A DNA stretch of 64,000 nt from an uncultured cyanobacterium (GTDB lineage Bacteria; Cyanobacteriota; Cyanobacteriia; Cyanobacteriales; CAWUOF01). Shown here one piece after another: positions 30,960 to 56,251 of this stretch. A program made the translations under genes and the position numbers. Each line of letters begins with the position of its first letter. Position 1 is the first letter of the stretch. A model generated the notes under the pieces. That model made no database searches, was not told where the DNA came from, and worked only from the letters and a program-made list of their open reading frames with translations. The DNA lies in NCBI GenBank assembly GCA_963744145.1, contig CAVUSO010000001.1:2624001-2688000 (forward strand). Direction: 5' to 3'.

Positions 30960-32531
30960 TTAAGATAGAATCTTTGGTAAGCCTACTTGTTTGGGTTGGA
31001 CAAATTTACCATTAAATCCCACTGCTTTACCTTCAATGGTTCTTGCTTCAGCTACTTTTAAGCGCAATTCGGCAATTTCCACATCATTCTTCATTCCACC
31101 CAAGAGATAAACAATTAACTCGCTAGCTAATTCCTGTCCAGAAACTAAGATCCGCTTTTTATTAGGATCAAAAAATATCCCATACCAGAGAGATTTGGGA
31201 GAATCTATTCCACTAAATCCGTCATCAGCATCGTATTTGCTGAGTTTATTAAAAACATCGGCGATCGGCAATCGTTTTTTAAATACTAAAATTCCTAACG
31301 CTTGAGCTAAAGCAACTTGTCCAACTGGACGAAACAGAATATTTCCTTCCCCACCTTTTTTTTCAAAACTAAAACGTCGCATATCTGGGGTTTCTGTGCC
31401 AAATCTTAAGCGATAATAGCTGGGTAAATCAGCTAAATGATCAAACAACTCAGAGAACTTCTCTAATCCTTCTTCCAGTTGCTTATTACTCGGACGGATG
31501 GGAATTAAATTTTTATCTGCTGGTTTCCAAGTTGGATATTTATGAATTAAATATCGCTCTGACATTTCTTTGAGAGCTTGAAGTGTAGTTAAAACAGTTG
31601 AATTATTCGCAACCGTAGGACTATCCCAATCAATCCGGGGATGACGACCATTTATACTTTTTAATAGGGGATGGGTAACCGCAACTTTTCTCGCAATAAT
31701 GGAAAATCCATCATCTTCATTGAGGAGGGTTAACTGTCCCTGACTTAATTTGACAGCACTAAGATTAACATGAACAAAAATAGATCTAATTCTTTTTCTT
31801 GCTTCAGCACGAGTTTCCCCTTTAACGACCGCTGGAATAAATTCAATCCCGATGCTTTCATTAACTAGTTTATAGAGTTCTTCGCTTTCTATTTCCGATT
31901 TTTCCATGATCTCTTCAATAGTGATCGCTGGACCGACATTTTTCTTCATTTTATTGACCGGTTGGAATTGACCGGTTTTTAGTAAGGTCATTAAACCTTG
32001 GATTCCCATGAGTCGGTGTTGACCATCTAGCGCAAAAATTGAGACATCCTTCAGTTTTAAAAAACCGACTGTCTCTTGACTATCTAAGCTAGTAAAATCT
32101 ATAGCATTTTTCCGCGATCGACCTCTTTTATCCCATTCTGGTGCTTCTGGATCATCTACCCAATCCGGACTAATTACCACTAACACCGCTGGAAATTTAT
32201 GGGTTTTTCGCGTGACTAAATACTGAGTTAAAGGTGCTTGACGCGACCAATCGAGAGGACGTTGCTGAATTTCCTCGATCGTTTCGATATCTCTGATTGT
32301 GTTTTTAGTTTGTGGATCTAATTTTTCGCGAAACAGTGGTAAATCGGAAGCAAATTTTACCCAACGATCTAACCATTCCAGTGTCACTGACCCAATAAAA
32401 GCTTCTGTACTTCCCATTTGGGTTTTCTGAACCAAAAGCAAATCATCTTTTGCTAAATATCGATCTAATAATCCTGTCAGCGCTTGTTTTTCTCTGTTTT
32501 TTGGTTCTAGTAGGTCGGTAGGGCTATTCAT
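30960..32531 (-). CDS. DGQHR-domain protein (DndB-like, ParB/Srx superfamily)
   Basis: QQRPLDWSR, ALDGQHR and IFVHVN motifs; start taken at MNSPT. Confidence 0.88.
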   Translation of the reverse strand: MNSPTDLLEPKNREKQALTGLLDRYLAKDDLLLVQKTQMGSTEAFIGSVTLEWLDRWVKFASDLPLFREKLDPQTKNTIRDIETIEEIQQRPLDWSRQAPLTQYLVTRKTHKFPAVLVVISPDWVDDPEAPEWDKRGRSRKNAIDFTSLDSQETVGFLKLKDVSIFALDGQHRLMGIQGLMTLLKTGQFQPVNKMKKNVGPAITIEEIMEKSEIESEELYKLVNESIGIEFIPAVVKGETRAEARKRIRSIFVHVNLSAVKLSQGQLTLLNEDDGFSIIARKVAVTHPLLKSINGRHPRIDWDSPTVANNSTVLTTLQALKEMSERYLIHKYPTWKPADKNLIPIRPSNKQLEEGLEKFSELFDHLADLPSYYRLRFGTETPDMRRFSFEKKGGEGNILFRPVGQVALAQALGILVFKKRLPIADVFNKLSKYDADDGFSGIDSPKSLWYGIFFDPNKKRILVSGQELASELIVYLLGGMKNDVEIAELRLKVAEARTIEGKAVGFNGKFVQPKQVGLPKILS

Positions 32532-32762
32532 GGACAAAGGTTTTAATAAACAATAAATGTTTATTAAATTACCATTTGAAAGTCCTGATGTCAATTTCTA
32601 GTAAGCGGTCAAGCAGAAAAATTTTTGGTTAAGATCCAGAAACCGGAAAGCAGATGTCCAAATCTTTATATTCAGGTAGGTTTTGTGAAGTATGTTCTCA
32701 TTTTTCTTAGTGTTACCAGTGGTTGGTGTTCAGGATTGAGTTAAAACCAAATCTCGAGAAAT

Positions 32763-37963: not shown

Positions 37964-39193
37964 ATGTCTTTGTCTAATCCCAATCAACCTCGTCTCTTAT
38001 CTTTTGCTCTCGACGATTCTCCTGTTCTCGGTAGACGAGTTTCCTTGTCATTGACCAACGGATTTGGAGTATTGGTTGGTCGAAATGGAGCTGGAAAATC
38101 AGCTATTATCGAAGGGTTGGAAGCTATATCATTAAGTGCTACTGGTAGAACTAACCAGAGAAATCTACCAAAGGATAGCGATAGCATTCCCAAAAAATTA
38201 GATATCGAAATTTTGACACCGACTGGTCGTCAGTTACAATACCATTATGAGCTGATAACTACAACTATATCTGCTGACGATCCAGACATAGATGACTCCA
38301 CAAATGATAGATCAGAAGAGAGCCAATTTTCCTGGAATGACTACTGTCAATACATTGATGGACAGAAAGAAGTTCTATGGACTACTAACACTGGAGTAAC
38401 GACCTTCAATCAGGAAGATGATCCAATTATTCTTGGTCGTATTAGCTCACTTGTACTTGAACGATTGTATCTACCAAAAAACTTACAACAAATAAAGTCA
38501 ACTAATGAAATGCAGTGGGTTTACGCTGTTTTGAAAGGAATTCGTATTCTGGGAAAGGTTCCTGTTCGTAGAACTTCTAGACGTAGACCATCTCAGATCA
38601 GAGTATTCCATAAACGTACTATTATTGGTGTTGATGATATAATAGATAGACTGACTCATAAAATAATTCGTCTAGATCTGGAAGAACTTGATGAACTTAA
38701 AGCAGTTTGTCAACGAATTGGACTTGGAAACGAGATCACTATACAGAAGTTTGTTTTAAGTGGGACATCTGGAGAGAAACTTGAAAGTGAAGATGAAGAA
38801 CATTTCATTTCAGTATTATTAGATGGGGTCAATATCGGGTTGCTCTCTGACGGAACACTTCGGATTTTATCGATTCTGTTAGAAATAATTCCATCATCTT
38901 CTAGTACAACGACAATAATTGAAGAACCTGAAACACAAATTCATCCAGGTCTGCTCTCAAAATTACTAAATGAGATTGAGAGCTATACTTTTGGAGAAAA
39001 TTTAGTTATCTCTACTCATTCGCCACAAGTAGTCTCATGGACTAGTCCAGACAAAATTAATTTAGTTTATCGAAATCATGGACAGATATTTGTGCGGAAA
39101 CTAGGTAAAAACGAAATCCAAAGGGTTGTCGAATATCTTTCAGAAGATGGCAACTTAGGTGAATGGATTTACGGTGGTATAATCGATGAGTAA
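37964..39193 (+). CDS. ABC/AAA_21-type ATPase (AbiEii/OLD-type defence-associated)
   Basis: Walker A GRNGAGKS, signature LSDGT, Walker B IIEEPETQIHP, H-loop STHSP. Confidence 0.88.
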   Translation: MSLSNPNQPRLLSFALDDSPVLGRRVSLSLTNGFGVLVGRNGAGKSAIIEGLEAISLSATGRTNQRNLPKDSDSIPKKLDIEILTPTGRQLQYHYELITTTISADDPDIDDSTNDRSEESQFSWNDYCQYIDGQKEVLWTTNTGVTTFNQEDDPIILGRISSLVLERLYLPKNLQQIKSTNEMQWVYAVLKGIRILGKVPVRRTSRRRPSQIRVFHKRTIIGVDDIIDRLTHKIIRLDLEELDELKAVCQRIGLGNEITIQKFVLSGTSGEKLESEDEEHFISVLLDGVNIGLLSDGTLRILSILLEIIPSSSSTTTIIEEPETQIHPGLLSKLLNEIESYTFGENLVISTHSPQVVSWTSPDKINLVYRNHGQIFVRKLGKNEIQRVVEYLSEDGNLGEWIYGGIIDE

Positions 39194-39582
39194 TTGCGTG
39201 ATTGGCTTGATTGCTGAAGATGATACAGATTGTGATACAACCGAAAGAAAAATTAATAGATTTGTCGATTGGTGCAAATAGGAAACCACGTTATAGCACA
39301 ATCCGGTTCAGTTAAGATTTTACTATATATAGTTGATCTGTTTGTTGCATAAATGGTGGGCAAAGCATTTCGGTAATATTCTTCTTCCCTTCGACTTCGC
39401 TCAGGGCAAGCGTTTTAACCATCATTTATGCGCCGAAATGCTTTGCCCCTACAGTGAACTGAACCCTATTGCGTTATAGTACAAATATGAATGTTGAACT
39501 AGCGGAAAAACTAAATATAGAAATTTGCTCCGATCGCTGTCCTTCATTTAAAAAACTGCGTGATTTTCTTCTATCATTATAG
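39186..39582 (+). pseudogene. Disrupted DUF4276/TOPRIM-like partner of the ATPase
   Basis: N-terminal piece MSNCVIGLIAEDDTDCDT (39186-39239) is joined out of frame to PKEKLIDLSIGANRKPRYS (from 39241); MITE insertion; then RYSTNMNVELAEKLNIEICSDRCPSFKKLRDFLLSL* (39472-39582). Confidence 0.7.
39299..39471. mobile_element. MITE with terminal inverted repeats and ~10-bp target-site duplication
   Basis: CAATCCGGTTCAGTT … AACTGAACCCTATTG ends; flanks CGTTATAGCA / CGTTATAGTA; internal GGGCAAAGCATTTCGG…CCGAAATGCTTTGCCC hairpin. Confidence 0.8.
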
Positions 39583-39838
39583 AGATATTGATAATTTGTT
39601 TTATTGATAAAATGGCAGAATAAAATTATGTTATTTAAGCTAACTAAAAGGTTTACTGAAAAAGTAATACCAATTTCATAGATTACAATACTTCGGGCAG
39701 TTTTTGGTTGCCAACGGTAGAATAAGGGTTTCATCAACCTATTACTTTTGCTGTGTCAATGAAAAATCAAGGGTTTCAGGCTATGACCTAAAAACGGTTT
39801 GGACTATTGATATCTGACATTCTTTTCAGAAAAGATTA

Positions 39839-39867
39839 TTGACATTCCTCAAAAGGAATATTATCAT
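39839..39867 (+). promoter_or_regulatory. Sigma70 promoter with internal palindromic operator for the TA-CHAT operon
   Basis: TTGACA-17-TATCAT; ATTCCT-caaa-AGGAAT dyad (39844-39859) in the spacer; AGAGGT RBS follows. Confidence 0.75.
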
Positions 39868-39882
39868 TAGAGGTAAGATGTA

Positions 39883-40284
39883 ATGTGGACTTGGGAGTTA
39901 TACCAAAACATCAACGGAGAAGTCCCCAAAGAGCTACTGGCTTTCTTTATTAGAATGATCCCAGAGGATGAACTGCCAATTGCCCCACCGTCACCAGTGC
40001 TGACCCCAGCAGAAACTAAGAGGCTCCAAGTCAATCTCGGATACCTCTGTTCTAAAGGTTTAGCGTCTCTGATGAGCGACATTTTCGAGAAACTGGAGGA
40101 TGACCTGTACGAGTTACGCATGACCAAAAGCGAACATAACCCTAGATTTATCCTAACTCCTGTGACTCCCCAGCGATTTGTAGTGCTGCACGCTTTTATG
40201 AAGAAATACAACGGTGCTATTAAAGATAAAGATAAAGAACCAGCAAGACAAAGACTACGCGAACTTAAGACGCGAGAAAATTAA
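39883..40284 (+). CDS. RelE/HigB (Gp49-like) family toxin
   Basis: KLEDDLYELR…RFI…VVLHAFMKK…ARQRL; toxin-first arrangement with TAATG coupling to an HTH gene. Confidence 0.82.
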   Translation: MWTWELYQNINGEVPKELLAFFIRMIPEDELPIAPPSPVLTPAETKRLQVNLGYLCSKGLASLMSDIFEKLEDDLYELRMTKSEHNPRFILTPVTPQRFVVLHAFMKKYNGAIKDKDKEPARQRLRELKTREN

Positions 40285-41030
40285 TGAGCAAGCAGTACAA
40301 CTTTCAAAATTGGCTCCAAACCAAAATAAGTGATGACCCAGAGGTGGTTTTGGCTGAAAAATTAGAGTATCTGCGGCTTTACCTGACTGATACAATGCGG
40401 GAGTTACGGATTAAAGCGGGATTGACTCAAGCACAGTTAGCTGAAAAATTAGAAGTACAACAAGCAGCAGTATCTAAGCTGGAGTCAGCACTTAAAGATC
40501 ATGAGTTAGAGTCGGTCCTAAACTATTTGCATAAATTAGATGCAGATTTACTGGTAGCTGTCAAACAGGGAGATGAACTTTATCAAGTAAGTGACAATTC
40601 TGGGACGGTGCTAGTAGACATACCAATTGAAGTCCAAGAACTAGCAATCTCAAAAGGGATGAGTCTGCGCGATTATGTTCAGACAGCAATCAAGCACTTT
40701 TCACCCAAGAGTAGAACAGTTAGAGAATCAGTGACAGCTTTTTTGGAGAGTAATGACCCAGTTGCTGTACAGGTAAGGGAGAGATTGAAAGCTAAATCCT
40801 CAGAAGAAATTGCGATCGAGTTGGAAAAATGTCTGAGCATTTCCGATGAAGAAGACCGGATTTTCGCTGTTAAAAATGCTTTAGCTGGAGGGATTAGAAT
40901 TCGTGATAATAACCGCGATATTAGTGATAAAAATGATGAAATTGAATTGCTGGATTTAGCTGAGAGTCTGTTGGAAAAATTGACAGATATTTGGGATTAT
41001 ACTGTTGAGTATTTGGGGAATAGCGAGTAA
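40284..41030 (+). CDS. XRE-HTH (HigA-like) antitoxin with extra C-terminal module
   Basis: LRIKAGLTQAQLAEKLEVQQAAVSKLES HTH, RHH-like middle (ELAISKGMSLRDYV), then an ~85-aa module shared with 41476-42060. Confidence 0.82.
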   Translation: MSKQYNFQNWLQTKISDDPEVVLAEKLEYLRLYLTDTMRELRIKAGLTQAQLAEKLEVQQAAVSKLESALKDHELESVLNYLHKLDADLLVAVKQGDELYQVSDNSGTVLVDIPIEVQELAISKGMSLRDYVQTAIKHFSPKSRTVRESVTAFLESNDPVAVQVRERLKAKSSEEIAIELEKCLSISDEEDRIFAVKNALAGGIRIRDNNRDISDKNDEIELLDLAESLLEKLTDIWDYTVEYLGNSE

Positions 41031-41095
41031 TTTTGAATCTAGGAAACAATCCATAAAAACCTATAAATAAGCAGATTAGGACAGGTAAAATTAAA

Positions 41096-41479
41096 TTGAT
41101 TTTTGATGAAGTTAAGCGAATAGCTGTTGTGCAAGCAATTAGGAGAGTTAGAGAGCAAATTATTTGGAAACAGGGAAAAGCTAATCCTCATCTGGTCAAA
41201 AGAATTCGCTTAGGTCATTTGCCAGAAGATGCTACTATTGAACAATATAATGCCATCATCACTTTTGTAGTTAATAACAATGATTCCAATGTTTATGTAT
41301 ATGTTTTTGGAGAAATGATTTATCCCACAATAGTAGCTAATATGGAAAATAGAATTTGGCTAGTAATGATAGGATTAGATGGGGTTTTAGAAACTTCCTT
41401 TCCTCCCGATGACCCCGAAGGTTATCTAGCTAAATCAGAGTTTATTTATCTAGGTTCAGTTAAGGAGTTAGAAATATGA
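41096..41479 (+). CDS. Hypothetical protein, putative toxin of a second TA-like pair
   Basis: 127 aa; WKQGKA..HLVKRIRLGHLP…WLVMIGLDGVLETSFPPD; ATGA-coupled to the next gene. Confidence 0.6.
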   Translation: MIFDEVKRIAVVQAIRRVREQIIWKQGKANPHLVKRIRLGHLPEDATIEQYNAIITFVVNNNDSNVYVYVFGEMIYPTIVANMENRIWLVMIGLDGVLETSFPPDDPEGYLAKSEFIYLGSVKELEI

Positions 41480-42060
41480 ATCCTCTCTTAAAAAACTATT
41501 GTGTGAGTGTCGAGTTTCCTGATGTCAGTGGTGCGGAGCATTTAGAAATGCTGCTAATTCGCGATCGCTTAACAAAGATTGAGTCTCAATTCACTGATGA
41601 AGAAAAAAACTTACTGACAAAAGCAGATCGTCTATTAGTTGAGAAAGCCAATGATTTTTATCAGGAATTATCGCGCTTTGTCAATTTAGCAGAGAGACGA
41701 AAAGCTCAAATGATCCCTCCTCAACGTTGGTGGTGGTATTTAGATGCAATCCAGGTTGTAAAAGGATTTTTAGCAAGCGATTATCCAGCAGCCGTTTGGG
41801 TGCGAGAAAGTCATAGTTCTCTAGCTGTTAGAGTACAACAGCGACTAGAAAATGAGGGATTGCCTCAAATTGTTGCATACTTAGAACAATGCTTAAGTAT
41901 TACCGATGAATTTGACAGACTTGGTGCTGCACAAAAGATTTTGGCTGGGAACTTGCTTAATGCCGATAATAATCGCAATTTAAGTGATAATAATGATTCA
42001 ATTGAGTTACTAGATTTAGCTGAAAGCTTGTTAGAGAAATTAGAAAAATTTCATCAATAA
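41476..42060 (+). CDS. Hypothetical protein, putative antitoxin/immunity domain plus shared C-terminal module
   Basis: Helical N-domain ending PPQRWWWYLD, followed by a module paralogous to the C-terminus of 40284-41030. Confidence 0.65.
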   Translation: MNPLLKNYCVSVEFPDVSGAEHLEMLLIRDRLTKIESQFTDEEKNLLTKADRLLVEKANDFYQELSRFVNLAERRKAQMIPPQRWWWYLDAIQVVKGFLASDYPAAVWVRESHSSLAVRVQQRLENEGLPQIVAYLEQCLSITDEFDRLGAAQKILAGNLLNADNNRNLSDNNDSIELLDLAESLLEKLEKFHQ

Positions 42061-42074
42061 AAAATACACTTTAT

Positions 42075-45000
42075 ATGGGAAAGAGATCGGATTATACTAG
42101 CAAAAAAACACAGAATTTACAGTCCCAAGAAGTATATCGCAAGTTAATTAAAGCGTTACTAAACTGTTCTGATGAGCAAAGACCTAAGATTTTTGATGCT
42201 CACCTAGAAATAATTGATACTGGATTTATCCAAACAATGGAACAGGTGGCATTTGAAATGGCTAAAGAAGGTGATGAAAGTGCTTCGTACTTTTTGAGAA
42301 ACTTTGCCGCACAGTTAGCTGCACAAACTGTTTGGATGGAGCTATTAAAAGCTACCTATAACAATAGTAATCGACAGCAAGTAGTCTATTCTATTTTGGA
42401 TGCTCACCAAGGTAAACTTAATAATAGTTTTGCTGAAGTAATAGAAAATTGGGCAATAGATACCTGGCCTATAATCTCGTTAGAGCAGGCAGTTGTTGTT
42501 GCGGGAACAATGATCATTTTCAGTGACTTGATTATGAAGTTTCCTAGAGGTAGCAAATCTGGCAATTTGGAAATTGCACTCACTTGCTGTCAAAGTGCCT
42601 TGCAAATTCTTACTAAAGAGGCTTTCCCTGAACTTTGGGCTATGGCTCAACAAAATTTAGGCAATGCTTACTGTAATCGCATCCGTGGAGACAGAGCAGA
42701 AAATATAGAACAAGCAATTAACTGCCATCAAAATGCTTTGCTAGTTCACAATTATGAAGCTTTTGTCTATGACTGGGCTAGTATTAAAATTGATCTGGGA
42801 AATGCCTATTATTTTAGAGTACGAGGTAAGCAAGCAGAAAACATTGAATTAAGTATTCACTCCTTCAATGATGCCTTACAAGTTTTGAATCAAAAAAAAT
42901 CCCCAGAACTATGGGCTATGGCTCAAAATAATTTGGCAAATAGTTACGGCTATCGTATCTTTGGAGATGTTGCAGAAAATATCGAACAATCGATCATTTG
43001 CTATGAAAATGCTTTGCAGGTCTACACTTTTAAAGCTTTTCCTGAATTATGGGCTATGGCTCAACAAAATTTAGCAGGTGCTTATGGGAAACGTCGCCGA
43101 GGCAACAAAGCAGATAATCAGGAACAGGCAATTTCTTGTTATGAAAATGCTCTACAAGTTTACACCCGCGAAGTTTTTCCAGAAATGTGGGCTTTGGTAC
43201 ATCGTAACTTAGTATGTACTTACTGCGAACGTATCTATGGAATACGAGCAGAAAATATAGAACGAGCTATAATCCACTGTAAAAATTCCTTACAGGTTCG
43301 TACTCGTGAAGCTTTTCCCCAAGATTGGGCTATGGCTCAAAATAGTTTAGCGAATGCTTACCTAGCTCGTATTTATGGAGAACGAATTGCTAACCTAGAA
43401 CAAGCATTTGCCTGTTACAATTATGCCTTACAGATCTATATTCGTGAAACTTTTCCAAATGATTGGGCTTTAATCCAGAGTAATTTAACAGTTGTATATA
43501 AAGAATTACAACAAATTTCAAAAGCCATTCAATCCGCCCAATTAGCTTTAGAAATTTATACCCCTACTTCAAATCCTTTGGAGTGCTTCAGAACTGGATG
43601 CAATCTTGGTATAATTGCCTTCACCGATAAAAGATGGTCTGAAGCTATTATGGGATTTAGTGTAGCTATTGAAGCAGTCGAAACTAATCGTAGTTGGACA
43701 ACTTCTGAATCTCGCCGTCAACAAATTTTGGAAGAAGCTAATATTATCTATATGCGGATGGTGCAAGCTTGTATTAATGCTAGTCAACTAGATAAAGCAA
43801 TTGAAACTGTCGAACGTTCCCGGTCTAAAAGTCTTGTAGACTTAATGGCAAGTAATGACCTTTACTCTGGGGGCAATATACCTTCGGAAGTGCAAGAATT
43901 ATTGCGGCACTATGAAGACTTACAAAAGCAAATTGACTCTGAACTTTTTTCCAATAATTCTGATATTAACCGAGAATTTAGGGAAGTAGAAAGTAGCATT
44001 CAGAAACGTGCTGCTTTTCAAGCTTACAATGAAGCGATCGCCACCCTAGAGATCCAAAAAACTAAAGTCTTTGAACAAATCAGAAAATTAGACCCTGTGC
44101 TTGCAGGTGGAATTCAAGTTAGCGTTATCAGATTTGACCAGATGCAGAGACTCATTGATCAACCAAATACTGCTATTCTGAGTTTCTATACCACTACCGA
44201 AAACACTTATATCTTTGTTCTACGGCAAAATCAGTCAACTCCCTATCTGCATACTTGTATAGGACAAGGAATAGAAACATTACAAAATAAGATTTCTCTC
44301 AATTGGTCGCAGCCATATCTTAAAGATAAAAGCACTTGGCAGTCTCAGCTAAATGATTTCTTGGCTGAACTAGCTCAACGTCTGCAAATCGATAACCTGA
44401 TTGACCACTATCTCCAAGGTATTGAAGAACTAATTTTAGTACCTCATCTTTTATTGCACCAAATTCCTCTTGCAGCTTTACCGATTCAGGATACTGAACA
44501 TTCCTATCTGGGTGACAAATTCCAAATTCGCTATGTCCCCAGTTGCCAAGTTCTAGAATTCTGTCAAGAACGAGAACACCAACACCCAATTGGAGATTCT
44601 CTTCAGTATGGTGTCATTGCAAATGCTACGGAAGACCTGCCCTGTGCCAGTTTTGAAGCGGAGAAAATTGCTAATCTATTCAACATCCCTAAAAGCCAAA
44701 TTTTGCAAGGTCGCAGTGAAGCCACAAAAAATAACTATCGTCAGTTAGCTTCAAAAGTTCAGGTGCTACACTCCTGTCACCATGCCGAATCTCGTCTTGA
44801 TAAACCATTAGAATCAATACTAAAACTGGCAGATGAGACTCTGACACTGGGAGAACTGCTGACTCCAGGTTGGCGATTCCCGAACCTATCAGATGTATGT
44901 CTTTCCTGCTGTGAAACAGGTTTGGGAATACCCAAATCTCTATCCGATGAAATTATGACGCTCTCAACAGGTTTTTTATGTGCTGGGGCAAGAAGTGTTA

Positions 45001-45353
45001 TCAGTACCCTATGGTCAGTAGATGACTTGGCTACAGCCCTGTTTTTTATTTTCTACTATCAGAATCGACAACAAGGTAAAACCAGACCACAAGCTTTGCA
45101 GTATGCACAGAAGGAATTGCGATCGCTTACCCAAGAATATATCAACAAACTATATTTAGAAATAAAAGAAAAGTGTCAAAATGCTAGAAAAAACCGCAAT
45201 CAATATCCAGATGACTATTTAAAATGGAATACTGAATATCGCAAGTATGCCGCAGTGAGACTTGCCATTAACAAAGTGCTTGAAACTCGCGACAATAAAC
45301 CTTTCTCACATCCTAGATACTGGGCAGCATTCACCTGTTCCGGTTTGCGCTAA
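42075..45353 (+). CDS. TPR-repeat CHAT-domain (caspase/separase-like) protease
   Basis: ~40-aa repeats FPELWAMAQxNL..AY..RI.G..AENIEQAI; CHAT motifs LILVPHLLLHQIPL, VLHSCHH (His), LSCCETG (Cys), AGARSVISTLWSVDD, HPRYWAAF. Confidence 0.93.
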   Translation: MGKRSDYTSKKTQNLQSQEVYRKLIKALLNCSDEQRPKIFDAHLEIIDTGFIQTMEQVAFEMAKEGDESASYFLRNFAAQLAAQTVWMELLKATYNNSNRQQVVYSILDAHQGKLNNSFAEVIENWAIDTWPIISLEQAVVVAGTMIIFSDLIMKFPRGSKSGNLEIALTCCQSALQILTKEAFPELWAMAQQNLGNAYCNRIRGDRAENIEQAINCHQNALLVHNYEAFVYDWASIKIDLGNAYYFRVRGKQAENIELSIHSFNDALQVLNQKKSPELWAMAQNNLANSYGYRIFGDVAENIEQSIICYENALQVYTFKAFPELWAMAQQNLAGAYGKRRRGNKADNQEQAISCYENALQVYTREVFPEMWALVHRNLVCTYCERIYGIRAENIERAIIHCKNSLQVRTREAFPQDWAMAQNSLANAYLARIYGERIANLEQAFACYNYALQIYIRETFPNDWALIQSNLTVVYKELQQISKAIQSAQLALEIYTPTSNPLECFRTGCNLGIIAFTDKRWSEAIMGFSVAIEAVETNRSWTTSESRRQQILEEANIIYMRMVQACINASQLDKAIETVERSRSKSLVDLMASNDLYSGGNIPSEVQELLRHYEDLQKQIDSELFSNNSDINREFREVESSIQKRAAFQAYNEAIATLEIQKTKVFEQIRKLDPVLAGGIQVSVIRFDQMQRLIDQPNTAILSFYTTTENTYIFVLRQNQSTPYLHTCIGQGIETLQNKISLNWSQPYLKDKSTWQSQLNDFLAELAQRLQIDNLIDHYLQGIEELILVPHLLLHQIPLAALPIQDTEHSYLGDKFQIRYVPSCQVLEFCQEREHQHPIGDSLQYGVIANATEDLPCASFEAEKIANLFNIPKSQILQGRSEATKNNYRQLASKVQVLHSCHHAESRLDKPLESILKLADETLTLGELLTPGWRFPNLSDVCLSCCETGLGIPKSLSDEIMTLSTGFLCAGARSVISTLWSVDDLATALFFIFYYQNRQQGKTRPQALQYAQKELRSLTQEYINKLYLEIKEKCQNARKNRNQYPDDYLKWNTEYRKYAAVRLAINKVLETRDNKPFSHPRYWAAFTCSGLR

Positions 45354-51789: not shown

Positions 51790-52737
51790 TTACAGTGATT
51801 GTTGCTCACTAAAGGTTCTCACGGTTTTTTCTAGACCTAAATCAGCTGCGATTAAATCAATTCCATCAATAATTTTAACGCGATCGCTAATTCCCAAAGC
51901 CGAAAAACATTTATCGCGATAATTGGGATGATTTTGAAAAAAAGATAGGGCTTTTTTTAATGGTTCAATTACCGGATAAGCTGTTTCTGCTTTCTCAATA
52001 GCTGCTTGAGGAATAATTGATTTAAGTCTTTGGATCGCTAAATCCATTAAATCTCGTGACTCTACTGAGGAGTCATTCCATCGATCGGAATTAGCTAAAA
52101 GTTTTTCAGCAAAACTATCGATTTCATTCAAACATGGTACGGGAGACCAATCTGGATAATCTGGTTTTCCTAATTCAATCCTTCCCTCCCTAACAATTTC
52201 AAATTTAATCAGAGTTTCATCAACTCTAATGGCAAATCTTACACCATATTGGTCAGCTTTAATTTCTCCAGATAATTCAAGATCATCTTGAGTATTAAAG
52301 AGCGCATTATATTGATTTTCAAATATTTTTTTTCGGAGCAAACGATACCCAGCACTACTAGCACAGAGAAAAGCTAGATCTTTGCTTAATCTATATTCTC
52401 CATGATTTAAGCTAATCATACTACCACCACCAAAATAGATCTCACACTCTAGGAACAAGTCAGCTTTTAATTGATGGAGAATCTTGAAAATATTTTGCCG
52501 AAATTTCTGCTCCAACATTTCTGTTTCTAACCATGAATTATAGAATTGAGCCAAATGTTTAATAAATAATGATTCGACTGGGTTTAAATCCGCTAAAACT
52601 CCTTGGTATCGCCAACCTCTTTCATATATTCTCAGCATTTCTAACCGGGTTAGATTTTCAATATTCAGTCTTTGCCAACATAATTTTTCTAAAAATGGCA
52701 ATTGATCAGGAATGTCAATTTCTGGTTCAATAAACAT
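51790..52737 (-). CDS. AbiEii/AbiGii-family nucleotidyltransferase toxin with fused N-terminal antitoxin-like domain
   Basis: YFGGGS..SL, YRLSKDLAF, ADQYGVR, IKFEIVRE, EKLLANSDR, RDLMDL; N-terminal ~70 aa with LCWQ…YERGWRY. Confidence 0.82.
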   Translation of the reverse strand: MFIEPEIDIPDQLPFLEKLCWQRLNIENLTRLEMLRIYERGWRYQGVLADLNPVESLFIKHLAQFYNSWLETEMLEQKFRQNIFKILHQLKADLFLECEIYFGGGSMISLNHGEYRLSKDLAFLCASSAGYRLLRKKIFENQYNALFNTQDDLELSGEIKADQYGVRFAIRVDETLIKFEIVREGRIELGKPDYPDWSPVPCLNEIDSFAEKLLANSDRWNDSSVESRDLMDLAIQRLKSIIPQAAIEKAETAYPVIEPLKKALSFFQNHPNYRDKCFSALGISDRVKIIDGIDLIAADLGLEKTVRTFSEQQSL

Positions 52738-53143: not shown

Positions 53144-55377
53144 CTATTTGTGATTAGTGACTAAATCAGCTAAGATTGAGGTTAGCTCAGGTGGAATTAG
53201 GGTAAACCGGATGTAAAAACCTTTATTACTATCTGCTAATTTTCCAGAAACTTTGGCATATATATCTCCGAATTTCTGATTCATTTCTGGTTTGATTAAT
53301 AGTTGAATTTTAATATTACTAAATGGCTCAACTGCATATTCTGAATGGATTTCAGCACTATTGATTGAGAGTTTGACTAAATTTCCTGGGGAAAATTTTT
53401 CATCGATATGCTTACCCTGAATAATCGCAAAATTGAGGGGAATCTCGGTTTTTAGATGCACCAGAATATCTTCTTCTTTAGGCAAAAATAGCTGATATTT
53501 ACCAGCAATACCACCAACGTCATAGATAGTAATATGCTCATCAAAACCTTTGGGTTGTACGGACATTAATTTATGAATTTTGATCACATCTTTAATCTCT
53601 TGGAGCGTCCACTCAGAAATGAATATTTCTCCACCTGCTGTATAAGATTCAATCCGAGAAGTTAGATTAATTGGACTCCCAATTACATCATATTTAGCGC
53701 GTTTTTTTGAACCAATATTCCCGACAATTACCTCACCCGTATTCAGTCCAATTCCCATCTGGAGTTTGGGTAAACCTAATCCTTCTAATTGCTCATTAAG
53801 TGGAAACATTGCTTGTTGCATAGCGATCGCACAAGCAACACCTCGTTCCGGATCATCTTTTCTTTGGGTTGGAGCACCAAATAGGACTAAAATTGCATCA
53901 CCAATAAAATCACCTATCGTCCCCTGGTATTCGGTAATCACATCCGTCATTTTTTCCAGATAGATGTTTAACATTTCTACCACTTTTTCTGGTGATAATC
54001 TTTCCGATATTGCCGAAAAACCCCTTAAATCAGACATGAGAATTGTAATTTTTCGTCGCTCACCTCCTAATTTTAATCCTGTAGGTGTTTCTAATAAACT
54101 CTCCACTACTTCATCGGTGAGATAACGACTAAAAATATTGCGGATATTGTCAGCAGTACGCGCAATATAAGCATTGATGGTGATTGCTGATCCTAATAAA
54201 GCTAAAGTTGGTGGGATTAAGGGAATCCACCATCCTGATAAGAAAGCTAAATAACAAATTCCCAATAAACTTCCGAAAGGTAATAAAACTCCTACTACAA
54301 ACTGGAATAAAAACTTAGTAAATCCCCCCGTATATCTCCATTTCCAACTGAGCGTAGCACCGACCACAGACCAAGCAAAAATCCACCAAAATTCTAGGGA
54401 TTTAGTCCAGGTTTGAATTAGCGATCGCCCGGAAAGTACACTACTCAATATTTGACTAATTAAGTTGGCATGAATTTCTACCCCGGAAGTTTCATCAGGT
54501 ATGCCGATCGGTGTGCTACTATAGGGAGTCAGGAAGAAATCTTTTTGACTTTGGGTAATGGAACCAATTAAAACAATGCGATCGCGTAGAAAATTAGCAG
54601 GAATTCGATCTTCTAAAACATCTGTCACTGAAATCATCGAAAAACTGTTAGCTGGTCCTCGATAGTTCAATAAGATCTGATATCCTTGAGCATTAGCATG
54701 AACATAACCCCCATCATTTTCTTTAAACGGAACAAACACAGTTTGACCGAATTGCAAATAATCCGCATTGATTGCTGATGGTTTCGCCAAAATCCCTAAC
54801 TTATTTAGATAAATTTCTGCTAATCTAAGCCCAAAACTAGGTACAATTTCTCCAGTTTTACTTGCTAAATAAAGAAAATATCGCCGAATCTTCGTATCCG
54901 CATCCAGGAGGACGTCATTTGCACCAATTTGTCCGAGCTTACTTAATTCTGGTGGAGGATTAATTGGTGAGTCTTTATTATTACCAACAACTTTCCTAAT
55001 TCCAATTAAATTAGGAGTAGATTGAAACACATGGGCTAACTTTTCAGCTCCTGTTCCTTCTGGTAAATCCCGAAACAATTTAGACCAATAGCGATGGGTT
55101 GTTGTTGTTTTAACTTTTCCAGTAGTTGGGCTAATATTTCATCGGGCATCACAGCCCGACCTAGTTTTTGAATATCAGATTCAGCAATCCCTACAATGAC
55201 AATACGTGAATCAATCGGCTCTCGTGGACGTAGACAAAATAATTGGTCAAATGCTGCTAATTCAAATATATGCAATAGCCCAATCATCCGCAACCCCATC
55301 ACCAATCCTGTGATGGTTGGAGCTGTGATTAATGGGCCACGCCATTCCCACAACAGCTTATTCAGCTTTGCCCACAT
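53144..55377 (-). CDS. CHASE2-domain class III nucleotide cyclase (Cya2-like); frameshifted at ~55079
   Basis: 55036-55377 (TM plus CHASE2 start DSRIVIVGI.E.DI) joins 53144-55078 (GVEIHA, TMs, SDLRGF, GDAILVLFGAP); one base is missing at IGL(N/D)LFRD. Confidence 0.85.
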
Positions 55378-55384
55378 AAAATGT

Positions 55385-56251
55385 TTAGGGTGTGATTGGT
55401 TTGGATTGAGTGGTTTGAGTTTCGAGTTGACAACAATTAACTAAAGGCTCTTTAATAAAAGGTTGCAAGTTAACCGAGGTTAACAAATTGTCCCAATCAT
55501 TCAACAACTTTGAGTTATTAGGATCATTACGACGCAACTCAGCTAGACTAGCTAAAGCTTCATACCAGATCCCATCGTTTGCGTAAAAATTGGGAATATC
55601 AAGTGGTTTTGCTGTTTTTAGCTGACCTACCAGGTTGTCACTAGGATTGCCGATTTGGACCCAACCAGGGTTACTTACTTCATCACCACTGCGATCTGTA
55701 GGATTACATATTAATACCAAATACCATTCATAAGTTTTGCCACTTTCTAAAGACTTGTCAGAGGGTAAATTAATGCTCGCAATACCAGACGTACTAGGAA
55801 CAGCGAAGCTATTTCTGTAAATTAACTGATTGTTTTCATCAATGAGGATAAATTCCCCAGTGGTAGCTGTTGATTGCGGAATATAGGCCAAAAATGTTGG
55901 AGATTGAGATACTGTTAATCCGATTTTATCGGTTAGTGCTAAAGCGGTCAAACTCTTGTCATTTGATGAAATACAGGAACCACCTCTTCGCGATCCAGCA
56001 CTTTCTGTGGTCGGAGGTGCCCCAATATCAGATCTAGGTACAAATTGAGCAATTTCCCAACCATTGGTTATTCTTTGGTTAAAGATTGTCTGATCTGACA
56101 ATTCTTGTCTTTGTGCTGCAAATCCAGGACTAATAAATATCTCTAGAGATAGAGTTACGGAAAGAGTCACAATCGGGAATGGGGATTTTCTCAAAACCAT
56201 AACAAAGTTTGGGATAAATTTAGGTTTTATGTTTATTATAAATCTCATCAA
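55385..56251 (-). CDS. DUF928 domain protein
   Basis: AGSRRGG.C, LTVSQSPTFLAYIP, YEWYLVLIC, GIWYEAL, WDNLL.SV.L. Confidence 0.88.
   Translation of the reverse strand: MMRFIINIKPKFIPNFVMVLRKSPFPIVTLSVTLSLEIFISPGFAAQRQELSDQTIFNQRITNGWEIAQFVPRSDIGAPPTTESAGSRRGGSCISSNDKSLTALALTDKIGLTVSQSPTFLAYIPQSTATTGEFILIDENNQLIYRNSFAVPSTSGIASINLPSDKSLESGKTYEWYLVLICNPTDRSGDEVSNPGWVQIGNPSDNLVGQLKTAKPLDIPNFYANDGIWYEALASLAELRRNDPNNSKLLNDWDNLLTSVNLQPFIKEPLVNCCQLETQTTQSKPITP

Follow-up and report, generated by a model that had tools for sequence, protein, structure and literature searches.

A candidate protease-wired toxin–antitoxin operon in an uncultured filamentous cyanobacterium: one C-terminal module on two putative antitoxins in front of a TPR-CHAT protease gene

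Caspase-clan proteases that free an effector by cutting its inhibitor are already known. In Csx30, the N-terminal part binds the effector, and the C-terminal part is recognised by the CHAT domain of Csx29, which cuts it within a small flexible loop. Cutting depends on the C-terminal residues of Csx30, and the resulting N-terminal fragment is unstable (as described in PMC10028731). The orthocaspase MaOC1 cuts a ParD-like antitoxin encoded next to it at the C-terminus, and Escherichia coli ceases to grow on co-expression; free antitoxin was cut, toxin-complexed antitoxin hardly (as described in PMC7935541). Here, we describe a five-gene operon in a 64,000-nt stretch of DNA from an uncultured filamentous cyanobacterium (contig CAVUSO010000001.1, positions 2,624,001–2,688,000; the whole stretch is called the window). 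The operon holds two candidate toxin–antitoxin (TA) pairs and a TPR-CHAT protease gene, and the second genes of both pairs end in the same module. We give an even chance to the reading that this is a protease-wired TA operon, in which the module would be a tag that is recognised and cut by the protease, freeing nuclease toxins.

Five co-directional open reading frames (ORFs) span positions 39883–45353 of the window, with a single promoter in front:

39821–39835, + strand: upstream operator-like palindrome TCTTTTC-A-GAAAAGA, read from the sequence
39839–39867, + strand: sigma-70-type promoter TTGACA-17-TATCAT, matching 11 of 12 consensus positions
39844–39859, + strand: palindrome ATTCCT-CAAA-AGGAAT between the promoter hexamers, read from the sequence
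39883–40284, + strand: Gp49/HigB-like candidate toxin, 133 amino acids (aa), of a RelE-superfamily mRNase family (Pfam PF05973)
40284–41030, + strand: XRE-type helix-turn-helix (HTH) candidate antitoxin, 248 aa; HTH at about residues 18–93, module at residues 150–248 (40731–41030), codon of loop arginine R211 at 40914–40916
41096–41479, + strand: candidate RNase toxin, 127 aa, TTG start, first gene of the second pair
41476–42060, + strand: 194-aa partner of the 127-aa protein; unique N-terminal domain at residues 1–94, module at residues 95–194 (41758–42060), codon of loop arginine R167 at 41974–41976
42075–45353, + strand: TPR-CHAT protease, 1092 aa (Pfam CHAT 2.1e-44, plus TPR_10/TPR_12)

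The initial annotation of this DNA had described the same co-directional run, and all ORFs and junctions were recovered as it had read them. A TAATG overlap at 40282–40286 joins the genes of the 133-aa and 248-aa proteins, an ATGA overlap at 41476–41479 joins those of the 127-aa and 194-aa proteins, and 14 nt separate the TAA of the 194-aa gene (42058–42060) from the ATG of the protease gene at 42075.

The 248-aa and 194-aa proteins were alike over residues 150–233 and 95–189, with 49 of 95 identities (52%, E 2e-24, BLASTP). This likeness is far beyond chance. The same comparison showed no significant likeness between the N-terminal parts. A common module of about 85 aa behind unrelated N-termini had been noticed before; it was upheld, at a length of about 95 aa.

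The distribution of the module was determined by two region-restricted searches of a collection of 5.8 billion clusters, which returned 23 and 132 proteins (141 distinct). All named records among these 141 module-bearing clusters were cyanobacterial. When the module was removed and the remainder clustered, three unrelated N-terminal classes appeared: 92 XRE-HTH proteins (about 214–248 aa), 38 short proteins with a helical N-terminus (about 153–211 aa) and 11 proteins of the type of the 194-aa protein (p194 type). A module-only alignment of 40 sequences from the window and related loci (A2) was then searched against 1.84 billion representatives. This profile matched 103 proteins at E≤1e-3, 58 of them at E≤1e-10. 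Pfam was run on 28 longer or unusual matches. Twenty of these were DUF1822 (PF08852) proteins with the module at about residues 165–260. The other eight were one HTH+TRADD-N protein (P0227), one TPR protein, three XRE-HTH proteins, two proteins with no Pfam match and one with a weak DUF6307 match.

Among the module-bearing DUF1822 proteins, short forms (253–272 aa) end in the module, and full-length forms hold it between the two halves of DUF1822. An alignment of 26 DUF1822 matches showed an F-L-x-S-D-D..V-A-x-x-V-R bundle, a variable loop that often contains D/N-R-E, and then E-L-x-D-L-A-E-E-L-L-x-K-L. In the search against 1.84 billion proteins, the homology of the module to the central DUF1822 segment reached 4.5e-13 for P0231. 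The 248-aa and 194-aa proteins had no PF08852 match at E≤0.1; what they have in common with a subset of DUF1822 proteins is the module alone. Hence, module homologues occur on diverse proteins, as the docking- or cleavage-tag idea of the initial annotation would have it: three N-terminal classes plus DUF1822, HTH+TRADD-N and TPR proteins.

This spread bears on two other explanations. The module could be an ordinary oligomerisation or regulatory domain (e.g. an operator-binding coiled-coil), with the TPR-CHAT protein as a co-transcribed neighbour that has other substrates; the linkage would then reflect a shared island or shared regulation, with no direct contact. We consider this improbable. 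The module is found on proteins without a DNA-binding domain (the short type, the p194 type and DUF1822-N), which argues against it, although its long, amphipathic terminal helix would suit such a domain well. Alternatively, the module could be a homotypic adaptor of the effector-associated-domain kind that pairs with its own copy on the protease. Short helical adaptors common to neighbouring genes of conflict systems are a known theme (as outlined in PMC8195603), and P0227 combines the module with TRADD-N. However, when the module alignment was compared, profile to profile, with an alignment of the full TPR-CHAT protein, hhalign gave a probability of 0.2 and a single aligned column. This contradicts a sequence-detectable copy of the module in the protease, and we regard the homotypic explanation as very improbable.

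Genomic linkage was studied in a locus scan with the module alignment, using one genome per species (185,579 species); parts of the window proteins were mapped by tblastn. The scan gave 76 loci from about 75 species-representative genomes. In 55 of the 76, an orthologous TPR-CHAT gene lay downstream of the module on the same strand, so the module does sit next to CHAT genes, as the tag idea implies. The median distance from the module to the first protease match was 461 nt. The CHAT domains were mostly 50–78% identical to that of the window and the middle region of the protease (residues 560–765) 49–79%; the TPR part was far more variable.

The most frequent architecture was toxin, HTH-module protein and protease (22 loci). 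It was followed by toxin, HTH-module protein, 231-aa protein, short module protein and protease (nine loci), and by the 231-aa protein with the short module protein and no protease (nine loci). The two pairs of the window with the protease were found again in two loci, both from Floridaenema (L001 and L002). Fewer loci had other gene orders, including a 231-aa/module pair after the protease. Without exception, it was the second gene of a two-gene cassette that encoded the module, and each protease had one or two cassettes. The cassette types were Gp49 with HTH-module, 231-aa protein with short module protein, and 127-aa with 194-aa protein.

Fifty-four loci contained a CHAT ORF. Two of these start at a contig end; in the other 52, the upstream neighbours fall into 15 families, which means that the adjacency of module and protease survived many rearrangements. 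This adjacency speaks against the protease being a passive neighbour. On the other hand, 31 of the 54 CHAT-positive loci lie at one syntenic Nostocales site, behind a class II aminoacyl-tRNA synthetase (lysS-like) gene, and this is in favour of the passive-neighbour explanation. Eight further loci lie at a second site.

No CHAT match was found in 21 of the 76 loci. Four of these (L020, L025, L054 and L072) end less than 2 kb after the module, and L020 shows the start of the TPR region. The other 17 have at least 3.7 kb downstream and yet no CHAT gene, and most of them keep a module that looks intact. Therefore, a tagged pair can persist without an adjacent protease, as would be expected of a mere neighbour. 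One of these 17 (L022) retains a TPR remnant of 175 aa. The protease could have been lost recently from such loci, or a copy could be located elsewhere in the genome. Several of them keep exactly the same outer flanks as protease-bearing loci, and this comparison of sequences suggests that the site is variable and that the protease was lost or is absent there.

One border of the Nostocales variable site (e.g. L035, 9177–11780) is formed by the class II aminoacyl-tRNA synthetase gene, whose product includes a KTSC domain. The other border is a conserved trio of genes encoding proteins of 200 aa (- strand), 209 aa (weak sigma-70 region 4) and 360 aa (TPR). A DUF29 gene often lies between the borders. 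The contigs of L020 and L054 are labelled uncultured Acetobacteraceae; their toxin, HTH-module and TPR genes are 60–80% identical to Nostoc versions, and they are probably cyanobacterial contigs in the wrong bin.

Clade specificity was examined in a plasmid collection, in which the short DUF1822+module protein P0233 had full-length matches on three plasmids. The three closest plasmid relatives of the window protease (53.5–54.2% identity over 552 aa) were encoded on the same three plasmids, a few kilobases downstream. On pn3 of Nostoc sp. UHCC 0926, a hypothetical 231-aa protein, a DUF1822 protein and a CHAT-TPR protein are encoded in this order. A CHAT-domain gene followed DUF1822 at all four plasmid loci inspected. 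The module was detected in one of the four DUF1822 proteins, that of pn3, beside the orthologous TPR-CHAT gene (54% identical; hmmsearch 9e-22). The other three have CHAT+nSTAND1, CHAT+periplasmic-binding domain and CHAT+CHASE2 proteins as neighbours, and these module-less DUF1822 genes are preceded by sigma-70-like or unassigned genes. Six-frame scans found no module at the module-less DUF1822 loci or at two loci with protease relatives of 33–37% identity, and the same scan of the whole window found just the two known copies. As DUF1822 stands beside other CHAT clades without the module, the occurrence of the module follows this TPR-CHAT clade rather than the N-terminal domain. That DUF1822 carries the module only beside this clade, in the one case of four, is a further point against a passive neighbour.

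The 231-aa gene in front of the plasmid DUF1822 gene was ruled out as a relative of the 231-aa partner of the short module proteins (BLASTP E 0.42). On plasmid pAQ6 of Picosynechococcus sp. PCC 7002 (L081), a CHAT protein with 37% identity is encoded after a DisA-N-like gene and a gene for an ATP-binding protein. A sigma-70 + DUF1822 pair lies about 3.6 kb upstream on the opposite strand, and no module was detected. An association of DUF1822 with extracytoplasmic function (ECF) sigma and caspase genes has been noted (Kaur et al. 2021, PMC8195603); beyond this, our literature search found no function for DUF1822.

The AlphaFold2 (AF2) model of the module, based on the A2 alignment, was of moderate quality, with a mean predicted local distance difference test (pLDDT) value of 75.5. 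It comprised helices at residues 2–6, 10–18, 24–35 and 40–53, a loop and a long helix at 66–95. The only internal stretch with a pLDDT below 50 was at residues 58–64, around R62, which corresponds to R211 of the 248-aa protein and R167 of the 194-aa protein. Taken together with the alignment, the module is predicted to be a small four-helix bundle, a flexible loop with E-x-N-R-G/D and a long acidic amphipathic helix D-E-I-E-L-L-D-L-A-E-x-L-L-E-K-L. A Foldseek search of the Protein Data Bank (PDB), which includes Csx30 complexes, gave generic helical matches only and none at E≤1e-3.

The loop arginine was present in 81 of 84 distinct modules from the loci, commonly as E-x-N-R-G. Counted over the 84 modules, P4 was E in 54 (D in 8, G in 8), P2 was N in 63 and P1' was G in 52 (D in 15), counts that overstate the independent support because many of the modules are close relatives; the other loop positions vary. 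The arginine was conserved in all three N-terminal classes and in genomes that range from Nostocales to the Oscillatoriales type. From model and conservation, a flexible loop with a conserved arginine is predicted. One arginine that is kept while adjoining residues vary is not what an ordinary oligomerisation domain would lead one to expect. Orthocaspases prefer Arg or Lys, and separase sites have the form E-x-x-R. The proposed arginine cut site rests on conservation and on this analogy, because Csx29 does not cut after Arg.

In five loci (L009, L010, L032, L044 and L058), a second 231-aa/module cassette was located downstream of the protease (at about 11.2–13.2 kb in each locus). The modules of these post-protease cassettes are clearly diverged, and their terminal helix is altered. 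The loop arginine is missing in L044 and L058 and probably in L032.

The protease has a variable N-terminal/TPR region (about residues 1–560), a conserved middle (about 560–765) and the CHAT domain (766–1090). Its His and Cys motifs had been reported as intact, and this was borne out: H899/H902/H903 and C945/C946 were invariant in 31 aligned orthologues, and the C-C-E-T core was present in all long orthologues examined. Residues 536–1016 were densely conserved in the 31 orthologues, and the N-terminal region and TPR array varied in sequence and length. The lengths of the orthologous ORFs ranged from about 800 to 1600 aa; in L037, L045, L051, L057, L060 and L069, the gene was in pieces. By sequence, the closest solved relatives are the Csx29 CHAT proteins (8d9f_A, 6.8e-9). 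With the NCBIfam Csx29 model, the protease scored 82 bits, below the cut-off of 300. It had no Peptidase_C14 match at E≤0.1, and Pfam matched it to families of CHAT and TPR alone. Stand-alone proteases of the TPR-CHAT kind abound in cyanobacteria. In our literature search, no reported substrate was found for this clade.

The promoter TTGACA-17-TATCAT ranked best of 22 promoter-like sites; overall, the scan was no better than shuffled sequences (mean 19.5). It is credible because its layout is kept in related loci, not because of its scan score: 51 of 53 toxin-bearing related loci had TTGACA, a spacing of 16–18 nt and TAnnnT, with an ATTCC...GGAAT-type palindrome between the hexamers. This lends weight to the sigma-70 promoter of the initial annotation. 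Most related loci had a second ATTCC/GGAAT-type palindrome just upstream of the -35 hexamer. To judge from its sequence, the palindrome between the hexamers is likely the binding site of the HTH antitoxin. Such a palindromic layout is the usual appearance of a TA promoter under repression by its own HTH antitoxin, and the same repression may be expected here.

The first genes of the pairs look nuclease-like by their sequences, with leads of unequal strength; Gp49 alone is above the Pfam cut-off. The 133-aa protein matched Gp49 (PF05973) with 34.4 bits at a cut-off of 23.9, and the 248-aa protein matched HTH_3, HTH_31 and HTH_37. The first pair thus looks like a RelE/HigB-like candidate toxin gene with an HTH candidate antitoxin gene, as had been suggested. 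Orthologues of the 133-aa protein were 74–89% identical across 53 loci. Gp49-family proteins have been described as ribosome-dependent mRNases (in PMC11980606).

The 127-aa and 194-aa proteins had no Pfam match at E≤0.1, and NCBIfam and PADLOC added none. The 127-aa protein had 47 homologue clusters, every one of them unnamed. The alignment showed the motifs W-K-x-G-K...H-L-x-K-R-I-x-x-G-H and E-T-x-F-P-P, with conserved Lys, His, Arg, Glu and Tyr positions. The AF2 model of this protein was confident (pLDDT 94.5), and Foldseek gave no match at E≤1e-3. The best folds, all non-significant, were those of CdiA-CT (8ey4_A, probability 0.82) and colicin D (1tfk_A, 0.77; also 1tfo_A and 5znm_B), with probabilities of 0.63–0.82 and TM values of 0.17–0.66 for this group. 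Colicin E5 (3ao9_B) was a weaker match (probability 0.44). A language-model search (Atlas) gave a Colicin_D cluster at 0.79, below the reliable level of the tool. From its modelled fold, the 127-aa protein is a probable BECR-fold RNase toxin candidate.

The 231-aa protein, which is the partner of the short module proteins in the third pair type of related loci, had no Pfam match. Its look-alikes in the language-model search, at 0.89–0.91, were restriction-endonuclease clusters, and it has the conserved pattern D...D-I-I-V...Q-L-T...K. The family profile gave one meaningless match to PDB sequences, a designed protein. A PD-(D/E)xK-type nuclease is a lead drawn from these sequence features. In two loci, a further TA pair (DUF433 + PemK/MazF), whose antitoxin is without the module, lies between the last module gene and the TPR-CHAT gene (L005, 8373–9099; L018, 5862–6588).

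The proposed mechanism would be as follows. One autoregulated promoter would drive two nuclease-toxin/antitoxin pairs and a TPR-CHAT cysteine protease, and each antitoxin would consist of an N-terminal part specific to its own toxin and the common C-terminal module. A signal sensed through the variable N-terminal/TPR region would activate the protease. This TPR-CHAT clade would recognise the module via the bundle and/or the terminal helix and cut in the loop. The clipped antitoxins would lose function or stability, and nucleases and promoter would be released together. As a result, the cell may stop growing or die, in abortive infection or in regulated death within the filament; alternatively, the operon may serve to stabilise a variable island. 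We take the module as a recognition and cleavage element because its anatomy matches the precedents of Csx30 and the MaOC1 antitoxin. Of the tag proposed in the initial annotation, the presence of the module on diverse proteins and its linkage to CHAT genes stood; docking and cleavage remain a proposal by analogy.

Several points weigh against this mechanism. The 55 protease-bearing loci, which were found through the module and in which linkage was counted from the module side only, represent far fewer independent events because many are syntenic Nostocales orthologues. The 17 loci that have room for a CHAT gene and lack it have to be set beside them. Three of the 84 modules are without the loop arginine, the Hormoscilla modules have a different loop, and the cut site of Csx29 is not after Arg. 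The toxin-binding part of the antitoxins would be N-terminal, whereas the proposed cut removes the C-terminal helix. The toxin labels of the 127-aa and 231-aa proteins rest on non-significant folds and language-model look-alikes. Moreover, PADLOC-DB 2.0 gave generic HTH matches only and a weak BovA match (4.1e-5) for the protease and called no system, and the window is not a dense defence island.

The same evidence could be read with the roles exchanged. Securin holds separase inactive. In the same way, the module could be a pseudosubstrate or anchor that keeps the TPR-CHAT protein inactive, with the protease as the real effector. The tagged antitoxins would then be labile inhibitors; if they were depleted, for instance by host shut-off or by translation arrest due to a toxin, protease and nucleases alike would be set free. 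Linkage, clade specificity and the combination of loop and helix are as compatible with an inhibitor as with a substrate, the protease is last in the operon, behind its putative inhibitors, and several unrelated cassettes per protease would give redundant control. However, tagged pairs without a protease are common (17 of 76 loci), and the sample, made up of loci found through the module, holds no protease-without-tag loci. The two cases known from experiment also speak for a substrate: Csx30 and the MaOC1 antitoxin are each a neighbour that the protease cuts. Overall, we think the inhibitor explanation unlikely, less so than that of a passive neighbour.

If the module is a cleavage tag, a broader reading would be that it is a portable wiring standard: inhibitors that acquire the module would come under the control of one clade of TPR-CHAT sensor proteases that stand alone. 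This would make the system a counterpart of Craspase that works without CRISPR. Antitoxins of RNase or DNase toxins would be among such inhibitors, as would the module-bearing DUF1822 relative after the unassigned 231-aa gene. By cutting the common tag at E-x-N-R, the protease would act as a hub and release several unrelated effectors together, with a possible role in immunity or regulated cell death of multicellular cyanobacteria. We regard this as possible, and as somewhat less probable than not.

The surroundings of the operon consist mostly of housekeeping and signalling genes. Directly upstream lies a gene for an AAA_21/AAA_15 ATPase (409 aa, 37964–39193, + strand) with strong PADLOC matches to ATPases of the AriA, HEC-01A, AbiLi and GajA type (7e-21 and weaker), and no gene for an evident nuclease partner lies behind it. 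As no relative was present at any of the 76 loci, the ATPase was dismissed as a part of the system and is treated as a neighbour only. The 690-nt gap before the operon contains, at 39347–39448, two nested inverted repeats, a perfect one of 16 nt (GGGCAAAGCATTTCGG / CCGAAATGCTTTGCCC, 59 nt apart) and an imperfect one of 18 nt; the perfect one has no other copy in the window. A CHASE2-adenylate/guanylate cyclase gene (53147–56251, - strand) appears split into a 113-aa CHASE2 start (55039–55377) and a 644-aa remainder (53147–55078). It adjoins a DUF928 gene, and the same DUF928/CHASE2 pairing stands beside DUF1822 on a Nostoc plasmid (L080). Scattered defence-like genes were a DndB-like gene (30963–32594, - strand; 1.3e-12), which adjoins a metallophosphoesterase gene, and an AbiEii-family nucleotidyltransferase gene (51793–52737, - strand; 9.4e-15).

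For TPR-CHAT proteases, the locus supplies candidate substrates, a candidate cut site (R211 and R167) and toxin release as a read-out. Because it points to all three, the question of what these proteases cut can be tested directly in E. coli. If the cleavage mechanism is true, an antitoxin could combine a head specific for its toxin with a protease tag that can be exchanged. Caspase-clan proteases would then cleave in a regulated way not just in one orthocaspase case and in CRISPR type III-E but also in a family of 76 loci. DUF1822 would be tied to the same logic, and a portable standard would give it a first function. A short tag that is specific to one protease could also serve as a tool.

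The initial annotation did not recall a description of this architecture. This holds for the common tag and the TPR-CHAT version: our literature search found no published account of a common antitoxin tag beside a TPR-CHAT gene, and a Trichodesmium preprint mentions CHAT domains and antitoxins separately. It does not hold for the cleavage of an antitoxin by a caspase homologue, which is known from MaOC1, or for the logic, which is that of Csx29/Csx30. What is new are the portable tag, the multi-cassette wiring, a TPR-CHAT protease without CRISPR and the link to DUF1822.

Compared with HigB/Gp49-HigA pairs, the locus has the same order of a Gp49 toxin gene and an overlapping XRE-HTH gene behind a palindrome-bearing promoter. 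In contrast to these pairs, the antitoxin has an extra middle region and the module, and the operon continues into a second pair and the protease gene. At 248 aa, the antitoxin is about 2.5 times as long as is usual. DUF1822 has been placed beside ECF sigma and caspase genes (Kaur et al. 2021); the window operon differs in having no sigma-like neighbour. With the MaOC1/ParE-ParD-like system of Microcystis aeruginosa PCC 7806, the locus shares a cyanobacterial caspase-clan cysteine protease beside a type II TA pair. There, the protease is an orthocaspase, its gene lies upstream of a single pair with another toxin family, and there is no portable common tag; here, it is a TPR-CHAT protein. With regard to Craspase (Csx29/Csx30/CASP-sigma/RpoE), no Cas7-11/gRAMP or other cas family was found by Pfam among the 44 window ORFs of at least 110 aa, and no search for array repeats was made. 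Both systems have a TPR-CHAT protease with a His/Cys site. The proposed neighbour with an effector-holding N-terminal part and a protease-cut C-terminal part would also be alike, as predicted here from sequence and model. A further likeness is that module-less DUF1822 genes follow sigma-70-like genes, and the module-bearing one of pn3 follows an unassigned 231-aa gene. The difference from Craspase lies in what is held: here, the effectors would be candidate nuclease toxins.

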